Positions 6,595 through 15,204 of a stretch of DNA of 34,585 bases are shown in pieces. The notes beneath the pieces were generated by a model. It saw only the letters and a program-made list of their open reading frames with translations, was not told the origin of the DNA and did not search any database. Position 1 is the first letter of the stretch. Each line of letters begins with the position of its first letter. The stretch is from a virus. Both the position numbers and the translations under genes were made by a program. The stretch spans positions 1 to 34,585 of IMG/VR virus record IMGVR_UViG_3300045988_064981; one strand, given 5' to 3'.

Positions 6595-6707
6595 CCCGTC
6601 CTTGCGCAGCAAGCAAGGATGGAGGCAATGAGGACGGGAGAGCGAGACAAACGTTCCGCGCGTCGGGGCGCTGTCAAGATTATGAGACAATGCAGGGAGG
6701 TGCAGCC

Positions 6708-7109
6708 GTGAGATATGCGTGCCCATATTGCGGACGGGTGCATGACAAGCGCAACGCTTGCGGGCTGGCACCCACTCGTCACGAGAGCGACACCGAGCAA
6801 CGACGCCTGCGCAACCGTCAGGCGTGGAAAAAGGTCAAGAGACTGGCCAATGAGAGGGACGGCTATCTGTGCGTGATGTGCCTGGCAGAGGGGACCATCA
6901 CCTACGGAGGATTAGAGACACATCACATCGTTCCGCTTGCCGTCGCGCCGGAGCTGGCTTACGACATTGACAACCTGGCCACCCTTTGCAAGCGGCATCA
7001 TGAGGCGGCGGAAAAGGATCCCCCCGACTCCCCGTCGGCGTTTTGGGAGAGCCTTCGCAACTACGGCAACCCCTCAGCGTGGAATTTATTGCGAAAACCC
7101 GGCGTTTGA
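6708..7109 (+). CDS. HNH endonuclease (packaging-associated)
   Basis: GTG at 6708 after GGGAGG. CPYCG...GYLCVMC...ETHHIVPL...DNLATLCKRHHEAAE. It is adjacent to the terminase genes, as in cos-type HK97-like phages. Confidence 0.85.
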   Translation: MRYACPYCGRVHDKRNACGLAPTRHESDTEQRRLRNRQAWKKVKRLANERDGYLCVMCLAEGTITYGGLETHHIVPLAVAPELAYDIDNLATLCKRHHEAAEKDPPDSPSAFWESLRNYGNPSAWNLLRKPGV

Positions 7110-7131: not shown

Positions 7132-7662
7132 ATGGGACGACCGGCAAAATCTGTTGATGTGCTGACGAGCACCAAATCGTCGCACCTGACCAAGGACGAG
7201 ATCCGCACGCGCAAGGCGGCGGAAAGCGCCGGACTCTCCGGGACCAAGCTGCGCGAGCGCGCGGAGGTCAAGAGCGATCCGGTTGCGCACGCGGAATTTT
7301 TGCGCGTGTCCAGGTTACTGACAAAAGTCGGCAAGAACGACGCGATGTTTGAGCCGATCATCAACCGCTACTGTCAGCTGCAATCCGAGTGTGCAGCGTT
7401 TGAGGAAATGCGCGGAGAGTTTGAGGCAGACCTGAAAGAGCTGCGCGCGAATGTGGAAATCGAGGACGGGACGCGCTACCGGCTGAAAGCCAAGATGCAG
7501 GACGCGATCCTCAACGCCGACAAGCAGATCCAGCAGAAACGCAAGATGCTGTTTGACATCGAGCGCGAGTGCGGCATGACTGTCTCCTCCGCCGTCCGCA
7601 TCGTGCCGAAGGCCGCACCGAAGGAAACCAATCCGCTGTTGGAGATACTGGGTGGAGATTGA
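7132..7662 (+). CDS. terS: Terminase small subunit, P27 family-like
   Basis: SD GAAGGAGG, ATG at 7132. MGRPAKSVDVLTSTKSSHLTKDEIRTRKAAE...FEPIINRYCQL...MLFDIERECGMTVSS is typical of P27-type TerS. Confidence 0.8.
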   Translation: MGRPAKSVDVLTSTKSSHLTKDEIRTRKAAESAGLSGTKLRERAEVKSDPVAHAEFLRVSRLLTKVGKNDAMFEPIINRYCQLQSECAAFEEMRGEFEADLKELRANVEIEDGTRYRLKAKMQDAILNADKQIQQKRKMLFDIERECGMTVSSAVRIVPKAAPKETNPLLEILGGD

Positions 7663-9328
7663 GAGCAGCCGCGCGGCGGAGTACGCGCGCTGGTGCGTCG
7701 CGGAGACCGGCGGACAGGTGCCGCACTACGTCAAGCTGCAAGCGCGGCAATGGCTCGACATCCTCGAGGGCAAAGTGCCCGGTGCGCGTGTGGACGATGC
7801 GGCGTATAAGCGGGTGAGCAAACTACTGCGCCTGATGGTGCATCCCGACCTTGGCTGCCCCATGGCGGACGGACTCGAGGACTACGCGCACCTGCTCATC
7901 GCGGCAGTGTTTTGCACGAGGACGGACGACGGCGCGCGATACTACGAGACCGCCGTGCTCGAGATTGCGCGAAAGAATTTTAAGACGTTTAACAGTGCGG
8001 CGGTGTTTATTCTGCTGATGCTGACAGAGCCGCGCTTCTCCCGCTTTTTCTCGGTCGCACCGGACCTGAAGCTGTCCTCGGAGCTCAAAGTGGCGATCCG
8101 CAAGATCATCAAATCCTCGCCGCTGCTTGCAGACGACAGCGTCTTTAAGGTACTCCGCAGCGAGATCCGCTGCAAGCTGACCGACAGCGACTATACGCCG
8201 CTTGCGTACAGCAACGACAAGATGGACGGCAAGCTCGCCAATGCGTTCCTCGCGGATGAGGCGGGCGCGATGGACAGCTACCCGATTGAGGCTATGAGAT
8301 CCTCGCAGATCACGCTGCGCTCCAAGCTGGGCATCATCATCTCGACGCAGTACCCAAACGACGAAAACGCCATGATCGACGAGATCGACATCAGCAAAAA
8401 GGTGCTGGACGGGCTGCTCGAGGGGCGACGCTTTGCGCTGCTGTATGAGCCGGACAACGAGCTGCTGGGTGAGGATCACTGGCAGACCGACGACCGGGTG
8501 ATTTACCAGGCAAACCCGGTCACGATCAAAAACGAGAATATCTTCAAGGCCATCGCCGATATGCGGACGATGGCCATTTTGTATGAAAACAAGAGAGAGA
8601 ACTTTTTGTGCAAGCACTGCAACATCAAGTTTAAGGGGCTGGGCACAGAGGGCTATGTCGAGGTCTCAAGGGTGCAAGCGTGCCGGCGCGACGCGGATGA
8701 CAAATGGTGGCGCGGGCGGCGCGTGTGGCTGGGGCTCGACCTCTCACAGACCGACGATAACACGGCGGTTGCCATGGTCACGACGGAGGACAACAGGATC
8801 TATGCACGGGTGTGGGGATTTATTCCGGCAGCGCGAACGCTCCTGAAGTCCAAGCGCGAGGGCGTCAACTACGACCGCATGATCAAAGACGGCGTGTGCT
8901 TTGCGTGCGGCGATGAGGTCATCGACTACGGCGACGTGGAGCGCTGGATCATCGGGTTGCAGGAGCGGTACGGTGTGGAGGTCATGCAGATCGGCTACGA
9001 CCGATACAACGCAATCAGCACGGTGCAAAAACTGGAGGAGGAAGCGCTGGAATGCGTGGAGATCAAGCAGCACTCGTCCGTGCTGCACAGCCCGACCAAG
9101 TTGCTGCGCGAGCAGATCCTGAGCGGTGCGTTTGGCTACGACGCCAACCAGCTGCTTGAGATCAATTTTCAAAATGCCCGCTGCACGAAGGACACAAATA
9201 TGAATCTGTATGTCAACAAAAAGCGCAGCGCGGGCAAGGTCGATATGGTGGTTGCGCTGATCAACGCCGTGTACCTCGTGCAGCAGGAGATGCTGTACGG
9301 CAGCGGATTTGCGGCGCAGGTATTTTGA
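7652..9328 (+). CDS. terL: Terminase large subunit (Terminase_1-type)
   Basis: GTG at 7652 overlaps the terS stop. 558 aa. Walker-A-like EIARKNFKT, Walker-B-like AFLADEAGAMD, and a C-terminal nuclease-like region. Confidence 0.85.
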   Translation: MEIESSRAAEYARWCVAETGGQVPHYVKLQARQWLDILEGKVPGARVDDAAYKRVSKLLRLMVHPDLGCPMADGLEDYAHLLIAAVFCTRTDDGARYYETAVLEIARKNFKTFNSAAVFILLMLTEPRFSRFFSVAPDLKLSSELKVAIRKIIKSSPLLADDSVFKVLRSEIRCKLTDSDYTPLAYSNDKMDGKLANAFLADEAGAMDSYPIEAMRSSQITLRSKLGIIISTQYPNDENAMIDEIDISKKVLDGLLEGRRFALLYEPDNELLGEDHWQTDDRVIYQANPVTIKNENIFKAIADMRTMAILYENKRENFLCKHCNIKFKGLGTEGYVEVSRVQACRRDADDKWWRGRRVWLGLDLSQTDDNTAVAMVTTEDNRIYARVWGFIPAARTLLKSKREGVNYDRMIKDGVCFACGDEVIDYGDVERWIIGLQERYGVEVMQIGYDRYNAISTVQKLEEEALECVEIKQHSSVLHSPTKLLREQILSGAFGYDANQLLEINFQNARCTKDTNMNLYVNKKRSAGKVDMVVALINAVYLVQQEMLYGSGFAAQVF

Positions 9329-9340
9329 CGAGGTGAAACG

Positions 9341-11002
9341 ATGGGATGGATTAAACGAGTGCTCGGCCTCGAACGCCGGGCAACAGAGGTGGAAATCGAG
9401 AGCACGCTGCTGCAAAGCCTACTCGATGAATCGGATGTCACACGTGAAACAGCCTTGCAGGTGCCGACCATCAGCGGCGGGATTGACCTGCTCGGCGCGC
9501 TGGTGGCTAGTACGCCGATCAAGCTGTACCACGAGCACGACGGCAAGGCGCACGAGATTGTGGGCGATCCGCGCATCCGGTTGCTGAATGACGAGACCGG
9601 CGACACGCTCAACGCCAACGAGTTTTGGCGCGCGATGGTCCGGGACTACTACCTCGGCAAGGGTGGCTATGCGTACATCCAGCGCAGCGGGCTGAGCGTC
9701 ATCGGTCTGTACTATGTCGATGAGCGCAATATCAGCGTGGCACGCGGCGCGGACGCTATCTTTAAGGAGTACGACATCTTGGTGCAGGGAAAGCGCTACC
9801 TGCCGCACGACTTTTTGCGCATCCTCCGCAACACGCGGGACGGCGCAGAAGGAATCCCCATCACGCGCGAGAGCAAGACGCTGATCTCGACCGCGTACCA
9901 GACGCTGCTGCTTGAGCGCAAGCTCGCGCTCATGGGCGGCAACAAAAAGGGATTTATCCAGTCCGCGAAAAAGCTGACGCAGGAGGCCATCGAGCAGATC
10001 CGAAAATCGTGGAACGAGATCCACTCCAACAACGCCAGAGCCGACAACATCGTGGTGCTCAATGACGGCGTCACATTTAAGGAGTCCAGCGCGACGAGCG
10101 TCGAGTTGCAGCTCAACGAAAACAAGCGCACCAACGCGGATGAGTTTGCGAAGATCTTCCACGTGCCGTCGGGCATGATCGGCGGCACGGCAACGCAGTC
10201 GGACATTGCCAGCCTGGCGCGTCTGGCCGCGATCCCGCTGATGGAGGCCATCGAGTGCGCACTCAACCGCGACCTGCTGCTGGAGTCCGAAAAGGGCTCA
10301 CTGTATTTTGCGTTTGATACCAAGGAGCTGCTCAAGGCCGATATGCAGACGCGGTTTAATGCGTACAAGACCGCGCTGGACGCGAACTTTATGCAGATCG
10401 ACGAGGTGCGATTTGCCGAAGATCTCGACCCGCTCGGCCTGACGTGGATCAAGCTCGGCTTGCAGGATGTGCTGTACGACCCGCGCACCAAGCAGATTTA
10501 TACGCCCAACACCAATCAGACCACGCAAATGGACGAGCAGCCGTTGCCAACGGATGGAGACCGTGGTATAATGAATGAGCGGGCACAAAAGCGAAGAGAA
10601 AACGGCCAGTTTGGCGAGAGCGACGGCATGGGTGGAAAGGACTCCGGCGGGACTGGAGGACAAGGAAGTGCGGCAGAAGCGGAAGCCCCACCGAAAACGC
10701 GGAAACAGCCTAATGGTAGTATAGTGCTGGTAGCGGGTGAAAAGGAGCGCTATCGCAAAAATATCATTGGCACCAAGTGCGGCGATGGCGTGAAAATCAC
10801 GCGGTTTGGTAAGTCACACGTACTGGGAAGAATCGCGAAGCGAGGAATATCTCCAAAGCAGATAACGGATGCTCTGAAGGACAAACATCCGGACGCGTCA
10901 AAAACAATAGAGGGGAGATTTGCCTACAAAGACCCGAAGACGGGAGTGCGTGTTATTGTTGACCACAAGGACGGCGCAATCGTGACAGTCACCAACGAAT
11001 AG
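9341..11002 (+). CDS. HK97-family portal protein with a ~168-aa C-terminal extension (Gly-rich linker plus small toxin-like domain)
   Basis: The N-terminal ~385 aa are portal-like (position after TerL; ...PTISGGIDLLGALVASTPIKLY...). The extension contains GESDGMGGKDSGGTGGQGSAAEAEA and then SHVLGRIAKRGISPKQITDAL...GVRVIVDHKDGAIVTVT. Confidence 0.85.
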   Translation: MGWIKRVLGLERRATEVEIESTLLQSLLDESDVTRETALQVPTISGGIDLLGALVASTPIKLYHEHDGKAHEIVGDPRIRLLNDETGDTLNANEFWRAMVRDYYLGKGGYAYIQRSGLSVIGLYYVDERNISVARGADAIFKEYDILVQGKRYLPHDFLRILRNTRDGAEGIPITRESKTLISTAYQTLLLERKLALMGGNKKGFIQSAKKLTQEAIEQIRKSWNEIHSNNARADNIVVLNDGVTFKESSATSVELQLNENKRTNADEFAKIFHVPSGMIGGTATQSDIASLARLAAIPLMEAIECALNRDLLLESEKGSLYFAFDTKELLKADMQTRFNAYKTALDANFMQIDEVRFAEDLDPLGLTWIKLGLQDVLYDPRTKQIYTPNTNQTTQMDEQPLPTDGDRGIMNERAQKRRENGQFGESDGMGGKDSGGTGGQGSAAEAEAPPKTRKQPNGSIVLVAGEKERYRKNIIGTKCGDGVKITRFGKSHVLGRIAKRGISPKQITDALKDKHPDASKTIEGRFAYKDPKTGVRVIVDHKDGAIVTVTNE

Positions 11003-11013
11003 AGGGGTGTAAT

Positions 11014-11283
11014 GTGTTTGACAAAGAGATGTTCACGCCGGAGGAACGCGCGTGGATTAAGGACGAAATAAAAATCGATCTCGACCGCCAAGAATTTACA
11101 CAAGAGGTAATGAACAATATCTGGTGGGGAGCGATCGACATCGAATGCGACGAAGCAGAGCTGGAGGATGAAAGATATGCGGACGTTGATACGGATGCAG
11201 ATGATTTTGTCCCGGAGGAAACGGACCGCATAAAAATGGCTTGCAGAATTGTCGATAAGACGAACGCGAAATGCACGATATAA
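11014..11283 (+). CDS. Small highly acidic protein (89 aa), candidate immunity/antitoxin partner
   Basis: GTG at 11014 (or ATG at 11029). 27 D/E versus 11 K/R. GC is lower than the flanks. It is followed directly by an intrinsic terminator. Confidence 0.6.
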   Translation: MFDKEMFTPEERAWIKDEIKIDLDRQEFTQEVMNNIWWGAIDIECDEAELEDERYADVDTDADDFVPEETDRIKMACRIVDKTNAKCTI

Positions 11284-11301
11284 GCCAACAATAAAACCGA
11301 A

Positions 11302-11331
11302 AGCATCTTGAGAAATCAAGGTGCTTTTTTG
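11302..11331 (+). terminator. Rho-independent terminator inside the head operon
   Basis: agcatcttga-gaaa-tcaaggtgct forms a 10-bp stem (one G-U), followed by ttttttgtt. Confidence 0.75.
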
Positions 11332-11354
11332 TTGCCAGGAAAAGGAGTGAGAGC

Positions 11355-11948
11355 ATGAGAATTGAGATCCGCGCCGATGGGGCGCATATCTCCGGGTATG
11401 TCAATGCCACGGAGAAAAAGAGCAATCCGGTCATGACGCCGCACGGACGGGTAGTCGAAGAGATCGAGCCGCGCGCGTTTGCGGAGGCGCTGGAACGGGC
11501 ACAGGACGTGCCGCTGACGGTGGACCATACGGAAAAGGTGTATGCGTCTACCGGGGCGGGTACGATGGAGCTACGTGAGGACGGCATCGGCCTGCACGCG
11601 GACGCGACCGTTACCGATCCCGTGCTGATCGACGCGGCGCGCGGTGGGAAGATCCGTGGCTGGTCCTTTGGGATGTACAACGTGCAGGACGAGATCGAGC
11701 AGCGGGCGGACGACGTGCCACTGCGCAAAATCAAGGCTCTGGACCTTGACCATGTGACGCTTGTGATTGACAAGCGCCCTGTGTACAGCGCGACCTCGGT
11801 TGAGGTGCGCGCGGATGCGGAGGCGGTCGTGGAGACCCGCGCCGCATATGGAGACGCACAGATCGTGGACAATGTGCCGCGATTTGATAACTCGGCCTAC
11901 CGCGCACGCGTGGAGGCCATCAAAGATGTGAAGGAGGCAAACGAATGA
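11355..11948 (+). CDS. HK97-family prohead protease
   Basis: SD AAAGGAG. ISGYVNATEK...EIEPRAFAEAL...VPLTVDHT...LREDGIGLHADATV...GWSFGM pattern. It lies between portal and capsid. Confidence 0.8.
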   Translation: MRIEIRADGAHISGYVNATEKKSNPVMTPHGRVVEEIEPRAFAEALERAQDVPLTVDHTEKVYASTGAGTMELREDGIGLHADATVTDPVLIDAARGGKIRGWSFGMYNVQDEIEQRADDVPLRKIKALDLDHVTLVIDKRPVYSATSVEVRADAEAVVETRAAYGDAQIVDNVPRFDNSAYRARVEAIKDVKEANE

Positions 11949-13105
11949 AGAACCTGAAAGCACTGGTCGAGCGCCGTGCAAAGCTGCGCGGCGACATGAC
12001 CGCCATGGTCGAAAAGGCCGACACGGAAAAGCGCGCGCTGTCCGAAGAGGAGGCCGCTGCGTTCGACAAAGCCGAGGCGGAGATCAAGGCACTCGACGAG
12101 ACCATTGCGCGTATCAAGCGGATGCGCGACATCCCCGACGAGCCCGATGAGCCGCAGGGCGGCGAGGGCGGCGCGGACACGCTGTCCGAGGAGGAGCGCG
12201 CCTTTGCGGACTACGTCACCGGCAAGGTGACGGAGTTGCGTGCCGGCGAACAGAACGTGACCATGGGCAACAACGGCGCGATCATCCCCACGAGCATTGC
12301 GGACAAGATCATCAAAAAGATCAAGGACGTGTGCCCCATCCTTGAACGCGCGACCATGTACAACGTCAAGGGCACGCTCAAGGTCCCCGTCTGGGGCAAG
12401 GCCAACACCACCCACGACATCGCCGTGGGCTACCAGACCGAGTTTACCGACATCACCGCCGATGCGGGCAAATTTACCAGCATCGACCTGTCCGGCTATC
12501 TTGCCGGCGCGCTGGTGCTGATCGGCCGCTCTGTTGAAAACAACGGTGCGTTTAGCGTGGTCGATTTTATCACCACGCAGATTGCCGAGGAGGTTGCGGC
12601 GTGGATCGAGGGCCAGCTGCTGACCGGCACCGGCACGTCCGCCGCGCAGGGCGCGCTGAACTGCGACAACACCCTGACTGCCGCGGGTGCGACCGCCATC
12701 ACCGCCGACGAGCTGATTGAGCTCCAGTCCAAGGTCAAGCAGGCGTACCAGGGCGACGCGATCTGGATTATGAATCCTGCCACCTTTACGGCGATCAAAA
12801 AGCTCAAGGACAGCAACAACCGCTACCTGCTCCAGGACGATATCACCGGGGATTTCCCCTTCCGCTTGCTGGGCAAGCCGGTTTATCTGTCCGACAACAT
12901 GCCTGCCGTCGCCGCGTCTGCTAAGACGATCCTCTACGGCGACATGCGCGGCCTGTCCGTCAATTTCCGCGAAAACATCTCGGTCGAGGTCCTGCGCGAA
13001 AAGTACGCCACCCAGCACGCGCTGGGCGTTGTGACCTGGTTTGAGTTTGACTCCAAGGTGACGGACAACCAGCGCATGGCGGTGCTGGTGCAGAAAGAGT
13101 CCTAA
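11945..13105 (+). CDS. Major capsid protein, HK97 family
   Basis: ATGA overlap with the protease gene. N-terminal coiled-coil delta-like region (KALVERRAKLRGDMTAMVEKADTEKRALSEEE). 386 aa. Confidence 0.85.
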   Translation: MKNLKALVERRAKLRGDMTAMVEKADTEKRALSEEEAAAFDKAEAEIKALDETIARIKRMRDIPDEPDEPQGGEGGADTLSEEERAFADYVTGKVTELRAGEQNVTMGNNGAIIPTSIADKIIKKIKDVCPILERATMYNVKGTLKVPVWGKANTTHDIAVGYQTEFTDITADAGKFTSIDLSGYLAGALVLIGRSVENNGAFSVVDFITTQIAEEVAAWIEGQLLTGTGTSAAQGALNCDNTLTAAGATAITADELIELQSKVKQAYQGDAIWIMNPATFTAIKKLKDSNNRYLLQDDITGDFPFRLLGKPVYLSDNMPAVAASAKTILYGDMRGLSVNFRENISVEVLREKYATQHALGVVTWFEFDSKVTDNQRMAVLVQKES

Positions 13106-14572: not shown

Positions 14573-15160
14573 ATGGCAAGATACGGTGCAAAATATGTCA
14601 AATGGGCGCCTTACAAGACGGCGGACAGCTCGTCCGCCGCGCCCGTGTATGACAACAGCAAAGCGGTCGAACTATCCGAGCTGACGACCGCCAACTGGAC
14701 GCCCACCATTGCGAGCGGCCAGCAGTACGGCAGCAACATCAAGGTTGAGGACATCTCGCAGGTCAAGGGCGGCACGCTGGCGCTGGAAGTGACCGACCTG
14801 CCCGAGGCGGCGCGCATTGCGATCTACGGCAACAAGCAGGACAGCGAGTCTGCCGCGACCAAGTCCGTGCAGGGCGCGGAAGACGAACCGCCCTACGGCG
14901 GAGTTGTGTACATCAAGTGCGGCGTGCGCAACGGTGTGTATTACTGGGAGGGGTATTTTTACCCCAAGTGCAAGGCGGTGCCGACGGCGGACGGCGTGCA
15001 GACTGGCAACAGCTCCATTACGCTGACCGGCGACAGCCTGAGTCTGTCCGTATTCCCGCGGCTCAACGACCAGGGCGTGAGGGAGATCTCCAAGCGCTTT
15101 GACACGGAGGCCGCTGCCGTCACCTGGTGCAACACGCAGCTGGGCATCACCGGGGGCTGA
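14573..15160 (+). CDS. Major tail protein (phi13-family-like)
   Basis: SD AAAGGAG. 195 aa. It lies immediately before the chaperone and tape measure genes and is followed by a strong terminator/attenuator. Confidence 0.75.
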   Translation: MARYGAKYVKWAPYKTADSSSAAPVYDNSKAVELSELTTANWTPTIASGQQYGSNIKVEDISQVKGGTLALEVTDLPEAARIAIYGNKQDSESAATKSVQGAEDEPPYGGVVYIKCGVRNGVYYWEGYFYPKCKAVPTADGVQTGNSSITLTGDSLSLSVFPRLNDQGVREISKRFDTEAAAVTWCNTQLGITGG

Positions 15161-15172
15161 TGAGACACGGAG

Positions 15173-15204
15173 GCGGGCAGGGATATCCCTGCCCGCTATT
15201 TTTG
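15173..15204 (+). terminator. Intrinsic terminator/attenuator after the major tail gene
   Basis: 24-nt perfect palindrome GCGGGCAGGGATATCCCTGCCCGC followed by TATTTTTG. Confidence 0.75.

Follow-up and report, generated by a model that had tools for sequence, protein, structure and literature searches.

A candidate toxin-partner cassette with an embedded promoter-like element and a predicted terminator at the portal/protease junction of an HK97-like gut phage

The window analysed in this work is the whole 34,585-nt stretch (positions 1-34,585) of the IMG/VR record IMGVR_UViG_3300045988_064981, which belongs to an HK97-like temperate siphophage of gut Oscillospiraceae-type Firmicutes, and the subject of the analysis is a small acidic gene, ORF89 (ORF for open reading frame), together with the elements surrounding it at the junction of the portal and prohead protease genes. 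The cassette and the head genes of the window lie on the plus strand. The portal gene (9341-11002, stop codon at 11000-11002) codes for an HK97-type portal protein of 553 amino acids (aa), the core of which, encoded by 9341-10540, is the conserved 'trafficking' part of a fusion protein (PF04860, E = 7.5e-49; TIGR01537). The Pfam Phage_portal domain spans only residues 47-360, TIGR01537 portal_HK97 also matches, the PHROG portal family reaches approximately residue 454, and the final ~140 residues form an extension. The core is followed by a linker (10541-10702), which was delimited in an alignment designated A2 and consists of a demarcation motif and then a Gly-rich spacer; the start of the linker also carries a sigma-70/sigma-A-type promoter-like element (10544-10572; TTGCCA, 17 nt, TG-n-TATAAT). 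Next come a basic DUF4258/Ntox49-like C-terminal tail domain (10703-11002), a junction with the Shine-Dalgarno sequence AGGGGTG (11003-11013), ORF89 itself, a candidate immunity partner (11014-11283), a predicted intrinsic terminator with a 13-bp stem, a GAAA loop and six T residues (11299-11331), and the prohead serine protease gene (11355-11948; Peptidase_S78, PF04586, E = 1.2e-25), the first essential late gene past the terminator.

The original prediction, made from the sequence alone, described an ORF of 89 aa with 27 Asp/Glu and 11 Lys/Arg residues between the portal and protease genes, and the ORF is present as described, with a net charge of -16 and an isoelectric point (pI) of 4.09. 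Its GTG start codon is located 11 nt past the portal stop and 4 nt downstream of the Shine-Dalgarno sequence, an arrangement allowing tight coupling of its translation to the portal stop. When ORF89 is compared with a 74%-identical homologue from another genomic context (contig L011; here and below, L with a number designates a locus or contig), the proportion of synonymous differences (pS) is ~1.0, that is, saturated, with that of non-synonymous differences (pN) being 0.158, and comparison with the copy in the chromosomal remnant L012 gives omega = 0.14. Because of these values ORF89 is more than a chance ORF and is a real gene under purifying selection. The AlphaFold2 (AF2) model of the product contains three helices, with a predicted local distance difference test (pLDDT) score of 75.7.

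ORF89 represents an orphan family. A word-indexed search of 5.8 billion proteins returned three clusters, with the ORF being conserved in 47 contigs, and an exhaustive HMMER search of 1.84 billion representative proteins with the ORF89 alignment recovered only its own family. No relative was found in GTDB with one genome per species, PADLOC and NCBIfam gave no matches for ORF89 (PADLOC also gave none for the cassette), and the Pfam scan, which took in the window proteins plus selected tails and partners, detected no helix-turn-helix (HTH), ribbon-helix-helix (RHH) or other DNA-binding domain in it. Among 50,697 GenBank phages no BLASTN match to the portal-to-capsid region was found, and in TBLASTN searches of GenBank phages the portal protein matched only over its core (residues 15-400, no more than 42% identity) and ORF89 matched none. 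The Rfam and tRNA scans of the window found nothing.

The lower GC content common to the tail and the ORF, which had also been pointed out, is seen in the GC scan as a dip to 0.46-0.50 over positions 10700-11400 compared to ~0.59-0.65 in the flanks (0.47-0.49 in the tail and ORF89 against flanks of 0.59-0.62), and the GC content at third codon positions (GC3) is 0.54 in the tail and 0.56 in ORF89 compared to 0.75-0.85 in the large terminase, portal core, protease and capsid genes, with the portal core at 0.81. The same region stands out in population diversity (pi), which was calculated for 11 copies of the phage from different metagenomes, namely the window and L001-L010. The values are 0.034 for the portal core, 0.044 for the first part of the linker, 0.0022 for the tail, 0.0028 for ORF89, 0.006 for the terminator spacer and 0.039 for the protease gene. 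A low-diversity block at 10601-11398, with a GC content of 0.50 against 0.59-0.62 in its flanks, is approximately 15-fold less diverse than the flanks and contains seven segregating sites in ~800 nt versus ~10 per 100 nt on either side. Its edges are sharp (10600/10601, which is inside the linker, and about 11398), and it contains the Gly-rich linker, the tail, ORF89, the terminator, the protease ribosome-binding site (RBS) and the first 15 protease codons. The block was recently acquired or swept, and the cassette, foreign in composition, has recently spread through the phage population. As the tail and ORF89 share both the low GC3 and a single sharp-edged block, their joint acquisition, suggested in the original prediction, is borne out.

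The relatives used for comparison came in equal numbers, 80 loci each, from IMG/VR and from a GTDB set of one genome per species, and their portal cores are 44-68% identical; the portal core of the window is 45-68% identical to 160 related portals. Named as hosts are Oscillospiraceae, Ruminococcaceae, Subdoligranulum and other Clostridia, and the counts refer to 138 non-redundant loci classified by crude automatic rules. By default the portal in these relatives is 399-432 aa long and its stop overlaps or abuts the protease start, as had been expected of genes that are normally adjacent. None of the 113 short-portal loci has the cassette, the gap to the protease gene being mostly from -38 to +23 nt, so the cassette is clearly not conserved universally. 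In a minority of relatives the portals are 496-590 aa long and possess the conserved linker followed by a basic domain of approximately 70-115 aa (tail pI 9.1-10.9), after which a partner ORF begins anywhere from an overlap with the portal stop to ~17 nt downstream. The acidic partners are 63-127 aa long, or 265 aa in L075, and those listed have pI values of 4.1-4.5, while the partner in L017 and L093 is not of the acidic type and is a Cys_rich_CPCC zinc-ribbon protein (E = 1e-16). No literature on CPCC proteins as immunity proteins was found.

The automatic rules returned 15 loci with both a tail and an acidic ORF, two with a tail only, four with an acidic ORF only and 117 with neither (Fisher p = 1.1e-14). 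Out of the two assigned as tail only, L017 does have its CPCC partner, whose start codon had been mis-chosen, and L114 has a helical crown-type extension rather than a linker and tail. Out of the four assigned as acidic ORF only, L014, L024 and L102 are tail-bearing loci whose Gly-rich linkers tripped the P-loop filter, and in L073 the gap is occupied by an unrelated 560-aa ORF. After correction, the partner is present in 19/19 linker-tail portals and in no short portal. No partner ORF accompanies the portals with other extensions, either P-loop (AAA_33-like; L139, L146, L147, L160) or helical-crown (L114, L149), and all of them but L114, whose gap is 102 nt long, have no gap to the protease gene. 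The same linker carries at least four or five tail families, on portals 45-68% identical, and the tail and partner similarity matrices for 19 loci are correlated (Mantel r = 0.56, none of 5000 permutations as high). In L100 and L113, for instance, homologous tails are paired with mutually homologous acidic partners (z = 14). The layout typical of toxin/immunity pairs, proposed for the window, is thus found wherever a linker-tail portal occurs, a small acidic or CPCC ORF standing 3' of each one and co-varying with its tail.

Several further genes were observed at the junction in these relatives. The AAA_33-like P-loop domain (GPPGSGKTTWV...RPDK...W) is an alternative cargo there, being either fused to the portal C-terminus in the four loci named above or encoded by a separate gene after the terminator, with further copies at 5830-6313 in L104 and about 4280-4579 in L015, the latter truncated. 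In some cassettes a YjcQ-family gene (PF09639, E = 1e-17 in L024) lies between the acidic partner and the terminator (2227-2565 in L024, 5787-6104 in L098 and a remnant at 4844-4966 in L075), giving it the appearance of a second moron docked there. The 265-aa partner of L075 (4035-4832), with 72 Asp/Glu residues, consists of three tandem acidic domains of the 'KANPKGDFW' type joined by poly-Glu, and the acidic partner of the common tail family in L098 (5530-5790) matches DUF1931 with E = 3e-4 and 21.4 bits, the cutoff being 21.8. Short-portal loci with a gap contain unrelated inserts (L080, L082/L152, L087, L153, L157, L118, L073/L136, L169), which resemble, by motifs only, Bro/ANT-like, GIY-YIG-like, HNH, 560-aa SGNH-like and 631-aa proteins. 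It seems that in this clade the portal/protease junction generally acts as a hot spot for insertions.

The linker itself is conserved. In alignment A2 it has invariant L, R, G and F residues and the motif ..PLP..DGI-x-E-x-R-A-N-P-x-H-D-P-K-N-G-R-F.. preceding the Gly-rich part, with the window having ..PLP..GI-x-ER|A..NGQF.., and when A2 was used in the word-indexed protein search, only short fragments were returned. E-x-R-[AG] is found at the same aligned place in 19/20 extended portals, being N-E-R-A in the window. Two to three further copies of the motif (EEER|AF, ELR|AG) are found where the capsid delta domain ends and maturation cleavage of the capsid protein is expected, and therefore the prohead protease may cut the tail from the portal. 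E-x-R-A also occurs near portal residue 10 in most relatives (LERRA, residues 9-13, within 9341-9400 in the window), and the portal N-terminus may be processed as well. Judging from these motifs and from the position of the left edge of the low-diversity block, the linker may serve both as a prohead-protease cleavage site and as a recombination boundary.

The promoter-like motif forms part of the portal reading frame where the linker begins, at the left edge of the cassette. It agrees with the consensus at 11/12 positions, has in addition the extended -10 TG, and is the only strong match near the cassette. A strict scan (TTGnnn, 17-nt spacer, extended TG, TAnnnT, at least 9/12 matches) of the 183 kb of 21 cassette-bearing loci gave 19 hits, 17 of which are at this site, and the same scan of the 113 short-portal loci (874 kb) gave 15 hits, none near the portal end; the element with the same 17-nt spacing is thus found at the same place in 17/21 cassette-bearing loci. 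In L040, where the homologous segment is deleted, there is an 11/12 match slightly further downstream. The residues encoded over the -10 region differ between the loci (G-I-M, A-I-L, G-T-I, D-I-I, G-S-M) while TAnnnT and TG stay, and the element makes use of codons that are rare in the structural genes of the phage (TTG, 9% of Leu; ATA, 1% of Ile). Within the population, the -35 hexamer, the TG and the -10 positions T1, A2 and T6 are invariant, and 8/17 spacer positions vary with amino-acid changes. The evidence for selection on the embedded promoter is good, though indirect, and the element is predicted to be active in vivo. By inspection, no conserved in-frame start codon with an RBS was found 3' of the promoter in the tails, so ORF89, located ~435 nt downstream, is likely to be the translated product of its transcript. 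The promoter had been missed in the original prediction, and it would complete the moron. An out-of-frame 49-aa ORF (10575-10724) starts 3 nt past the -10 hexamer and is probably not expressed since it begins upstream of the expected transcription start.

At the right side of the cassette, the hairpin AAAGCATCTTGA-GAAA-TCAAGGTGCTTT with its T-run at 11299-11331 has a folding energy of -20.5 kcal/mol (z = -4.4, none of 200 shuffles as stable) and ends 24 nt 5' of the protease start codon. The consensus terminator scan of the window did not list this hairpin, so support for the terminator comes from folding and conservation. A hairpin with a T-run is located just 5' of the protease RBS in every cassette-bearing relative examined. 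In L093, which has another tail and the CPCC partner, the stem is nearly identical to that of the window (GAGCATCTTGAGCAATCAAGGTGCTTTTTT), as is the stem of the remnant L012, and the stems of L102 and L106 are related. The near-identity of the L093 stem despite its different cargo means that conserved flanks bracket the variable cargo, and the terminator, to judge by this comparison, belongs to the dock as its right flank, together with the protease RBS, and not to the cargo. The terminator after the ORF and its position ahead of the essential protease and capsid genes were recognised correctly from the start; as a correction to that account, the terminator is not peculiar to this cassette and is part of the right junction in all cassette-bearing relatives. 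It is predicted to be functional in vivo. The 24 nt between it and the protease start leave no space for a promoter, and no antitermination function was identified among the window genes.

The surrounding genes form a standard HK97-like head module, with an HNH endonuclease gene (6690-7109), the small terminase gene (7132-7662; a weak Terminase_4 match) and the large terminase (TerL) gene (7652-9328) preceding the portal gene, and the major capsid protein gene with an N-terminal delta domain (11945-13105) following the protease gene, after which come connector and tail genes. A separate scaffold-protein role was considered and rejected, since a delta domain is already encoded by the capsid gene. 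At 15172-15197 a strong terminator-like hairpin (11 bp, nine of them G-C) is located directly 3' of a 195-aa ORF (14573-15160), which is taken as the major tail protein from its position only; this hairpin would be a second terminator inside the late operon.

The tail domain of the window has a pI of 9.95 and a net charge of +9 and is a probable DUF4258/Ntox49-like domain, predicted to be an RNase toxin of the BECR fold. It matches Pfam DUF4258 with E = 0.05 over profile positions 3-69 of 71, and the L113 tail scores 24.6 bits against the same profile (E = 3.2e-5; cutoff 25). Between the window tail and those of L100 and L113 the identity is 33-35% (z = 10.4, none of 2000 composition-preserving shuffles as high), and in the alignment of these three sequences (A4) H24, R32 and K44 are invariant, in agreement with the conserved His plus Lys/Arg of the DUF4258/Ntox49 signature. 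The conserved residues of Ntox49 are given as 'H, [KR]' by Zhang et al. 2012, who found this domain on MuF carriers and in Caudovirales (PMC3482391). DUF4258 overlaps Ntox49 and has been classed as a colicin-like BECR-fold RNase toxin (bioRxiv 10.64898/2026.08.28.747851); it has also been listed among the toxins of type II toxin-antitoxin (TA) systems, in modules listed antitoxin first (PMC11980606).

The window tail did not match the Pfam PBECR families at E <= 0.1, the tail alone retrieved only its own truncated variant from the 5.8-billion-protein database, family A4 was not found in IMG/VR, and the profiles of A4 and of the commonest tail family (A7) gave nothing significant among the PDB sequences. 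The tail family of L017 and L093, on the other hand, matches the 88-aa chain of PDB 8EY4, a 'PT-VENN domain-containing protein', over its whole length (E = 1.5e-5), and therefore the portal position does carry bona fide polymorphic-toxin C-terminal domains. The same tail family also matches the C-terminal ends of one PHROG portal family and one PHROG minor-head-protein family.

Some copies show parts of the cassette separated from each other. The variant L002, found in several samples, has a 109-nt deletion (10666-10774) that cuts the portal to 447 aa and leaves the last 70 tail codons as a separate ORF (P0004; three contigs). In L011, a short chromosomal contig, a GNAT acetyltransferase gene is followed by an ORF89 homologue with its own RBS and hairpin and by a convergent galE gene; portal and tail are both absent, and similarity to the window is confined to the ORF (70% at the nucleotide level). 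L012, a chromosomal remnant flanked by genes for 5S rRNA and an ABC permease, keeps the regions corresponding to window positions 10536-10617, with the promoter and linker, and 10906-11451, with ORF89 and the terminator as well as 32 codons each from the end of the tail and from the protease gene; the tail-domain core (10618-10905) is absent. Both L011 and L012, the two cases found and both of them short contigs, fit the orphan-immunity pattern of polymorphic toxin systems.

Taken together, the features described make it very likely that the tail, ORF89, the promoter and the terminator constitute one exchangeable accessory cassette. Features of a moron are observed, namely a gene absent in relatives, deviant base composition and a downstream terminator motif, as are those of a polymorphic system, i.e., varied C-termini on one carrier, a demarcation motif, a co-varying downstream gene and orphan copies. 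The original observation is confirmed, and its interpretation as a moron with a candidate immunity gene is supported by several independent comparative lines, every claim in it that could be tested having stood; as to the immunity-partner idea, the gene layout agrees with it, and ORF89 has no detectable homology to any known immunity family. It is reasonable to suggest, as the most likely reading, that ORF89 is a neutralising partner of a portal-borne toxin domain of the BECR type.

According to this suggestion, positions 10544-11331 would be one exchangeable moron docked at the portal/protease junction. The first part of it would be read in frame with the portal, the linker and Gly-rich spacer carrying a basic domain of ~95 aa, and twelve tail copies per virion would face the capsid interior. 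The tail is presumed to be toxic and to have RNase activity, and ORF89 would be the cognate acidic immunity protein that binds and masks it in the producing cell. The host-type promoter in the linker would transcribe ORF89 alone, in the lysogen and early after injection, with the terminator ending this transcript before the protease gene, and lysogens would thereby be protected from the toxin of sibling virions. Late transcription would have to read through the terminator. In the procapsid, the prohead protease may cut the E-R|A site of the linker, speculatively freeing the tail to leave with the DNA and enter the target cell. The scheme in its entirety, with the portal vertex as a toxin launcher injecting 12 protease-released RNase domains, an antidote that is expressed from a codon-embedded promoter and saves lysogens only, and a plug-and-play dock, is put forward only as a tentative one.

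Several observations weigh against ORF89 being the antidote of a portal-borne toxin. The window tail scores 14.3 bits with DUF4258 compared to the Pfam gathering cutoff of 25, and its AF2 model has a pLDDT of 46 and is unusable, the predicted helix and beta-strands being compatible with a BECR fold but unreliable; the Foldseek matches of this model (TBP and others) were discarded as meaningless. ORF89 has no match to a known immunity family in Pfam, PHROGs, NCBIfam or PADLOC, and Foldseek found no fold match for it below E = 0.8 in PDB and BFVD. It is not detectably homologous to the L100 and L113 partners either (hhalign probability 1.4%; z = 0.5 and 3.1), and since the profile comparison is not significant, they are not claimed as one family. 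The copy of ORF89 in L012 has a 1-nt frameshift near codon 73. Co-variation of adjacent genes can come from linkage alone, and the P-values overstate independence because the loci are related phylogenetically. The promoter motif overlaps a conserved peptide motif, and protein constraint explains part of its conservation.

Out of the alternatives, the one that survives best is that ORF89 is a charge-masking assembly chaperone, with the tail being a non-toxic nucleic-acid-binding or DNA-retention domain and the acidic ORF preventing its premature binding or aggregation, as a histone chaperone does. Charge complementarity is indeed strong in all the pairs, the tight translational coupling fits a stoichiometric partner, and the commonest tail family (KTKYAPSPQRN...), with a net charge of up to +18, has no recognisable catalytic family. 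Nevertheless, such a role is considered unlikely: structural roles seldom give several unrelated tail families on one linker, two of the families are homologous to bona fide toxin domains, 113 loci manage without any tail, L011 and L012, the latter lacking the tail core, have nothing to chaperone, and a separate promoter for the partner alone would be useless if the partner were needed late only.

It is also rather improbable that ORF89 is an independent anti-defence moron, i.e., a DNA mimic or an anti-restriction protein like Ocr or ArdA in principle, whose position next to the tail merely reflects a shared hot spot. At the junction, the partner is never found without the tail nor the tail without the partner, despite the exchange of cassettes, in one tail family the partner is a Cys-rich zinc ribbon and not a DNA mimic, and ORF89 is dissimilar to every phage protein family searched (PHROGs, GenBank phages, BFVD). 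This explanation would account for ORF89 being small, helical and 30% Asp/Glu, for its host-type promoter and terminator, which morons also have, for the unrelated cargo that the junction holds in relatives (YjcQ, HNH, Bro/ANT-like and P-loop genes) and for the presence of ORF89 without a tail in L011.

A prophage TA or abortive-infection module, in which the promoter would express the free tail and ORF89 as a type II-like pair and the fusion to the portal would be incidental, would agree with the listing of DUF4258 as a type II toxin (PMC11980606), with the position of the promoter upstream of both the tail-coding region and ORF89, and with the deletion in L002, which uncouples a 70-aa tail ORF from the portal. 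Yet a conserved in-frame start with an RBS is lacking after the promoter, the order is toxin and then partner whereas DUF4258 modules are listed with the antitoxin first, ORF89 has neither a DNA-binding antitoxin domain nor a PADLOC hit, and the tail is always fused in frame via the conserved linker, all of which makes this module quite improbable. Finally, the proposal that ORF89 is a chance ORF followed by a fortuitous hairpin in a long intergenic spacer, for which its GTG start and the lack of a database family might speak, is already refuted by the purifying selection described above (pN = 0.158 at saturated pS, omega = 0.14), the reasonably confident AF2 model, the conservation in 47 contigs and the equivalent ORFs and terminators in all cassette-bearing relatives.

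Until now, phage polymorphic toxins have been linked with MuF minor head proteins, and portal fusions have been noted as architectures only. In the window and ~20 relatives, a carrier, a demarcation linker, a variable toxin-like tail, a co-varying antidote-like gene, a promoter-like element inside the coding sequence and a predicted terminator are found together on an HK97-type portal as a complete modular system. If the neutralising-partner reading is true, the cassette would reveal a new way in which abundant gut Firmicutes phages deliver toxins for inter-bacterial conflict or host takeover, with 12 toxins per virion, and several candidate families of toxins and immunity proteins would be new, among them the orphan ORF89. 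The cassette would also be a clean example of a promoter kept inside an essential structural gene by nucleotide-level selection, the location of essential late genes behind a conserved terminator would bear on terminator read-through in Firmicutes phages, and there would be a permissive site for loading cargo proteins into capsids. If the toxin-launcher scheme holds as well, phages of gut Clostridia would swap toxin and antidote cargo at a conserved dock, with the promoter and linker on its left and the terminator on its right.

Among the known systems, the MuF toxins of temperate phages (Jamet et al. 2017, PMC5576092; Zhang et al. 2012, PMC3482391) resemble the cassette in using a head or packaging protein as the N-terminal carrier of variable C-terminal toxins, including Ntox49/BECR RNases, in having a downstream immunity gene, in occurring in Firmicutes prophages and in their proposed delivery with the injected DNA, and one tail family found here is also present at the C-terminus of a PHROG 'minor head protein' family. 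The carrier, however, is a portal protein (PF04860/TIGR01537) and not MuF/SPP1-gp7 (PF04233/PF06152 or MuF3/4), 12 copies per virion are implied instead of one or two, and the cassette occupies the portal/protease junction, together with a conserved promoter-like element embedded in the coding sequence and a terminator. There is no muf gene, and no MuF domain was found in the portal or in the interval up to the protease gene; for this reason the cassette does not belong to the MuF toxin family; it is set apart from that family, yet by analogy would work like one of its members.

Portal domains with a C-terminal BECR-type RNase, read as packaged and injected effectors, are included in the 'polyvalent protein' survey of Iyer et al. 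2017 (PMC5512222), which deals with fusions of portal or MuF domains to PBECR, 2H and InPase effector domains. In the passages concerned the fusions are treated as effectors with no mention of a cognate partner, whereas here a co-varying acidic partner gene, a promoter and a terminator accompany the tails.

The CdiA-CT/CdiI and Rhs-CT/RhsI systems share with the cassette a demarcation motif, a variable C-terminal toxin, an immunity gene directly downstream and orphan modules, and a sister tail family has its match in PDB 8EY4, the C-terminal domain of a PT-VENN protein. The differences are that the virion, instead of a type V or type VI secretion system, would be the means of delivery here and that the motif is ..E-x-R-A-N-P-x-H-D-P-K-N-G-R-F.. 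rather than VENN or PxxxxDPxGL. From type II TA modules the cassette differs in the fusion of the tail to the portal, the toxin-then-partner order and the lack of a DNA-binding domain in ORF89.

The morons of lambdoid and HK97-like phages, reportedly described by Juhala et al. and Hendrix et al. in 2000, are similar in being extra genes absent from close relatives, with deviant composition and their own promoter and terminator inside a late operon. In the window, by contrast, the 5' half of the moron is translated within the upstream essential gene, which also houses the promoter, and the dock is conserved while the cargo is polymorphic.

The closest regulatory analogue appears to be the nuclease colicin operon, where, as proposed here, a toxin gene is followed by a coupled acidic immunity gene and an intrinsic terminator passed only by read-through. 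The promoter of the colicin immunity gene lies inside the colicin gene. In the operons cea-cei-T1-cel (ColE2/E3/E7), the toxin and immunity genes are coupled and T1 limits read-through (PMC2896534, PMC4161892), and Chak and James 1985 reportedly analysed separate promoters for the immunity genes of colicins. Unlike in colicin operons, there is no SOS box here, the sequences show no relationship, the toxin-like domain belongs to a structural protein, and the genes downstream are essential virion genes rather than a lysis gene. Portal-BECR fusions have been noted before as architectures; what appears to be new is the co-varying partner, the promoter embedded in coding sequence, the conserved dock with its terminator and the orphan family of ORF89.

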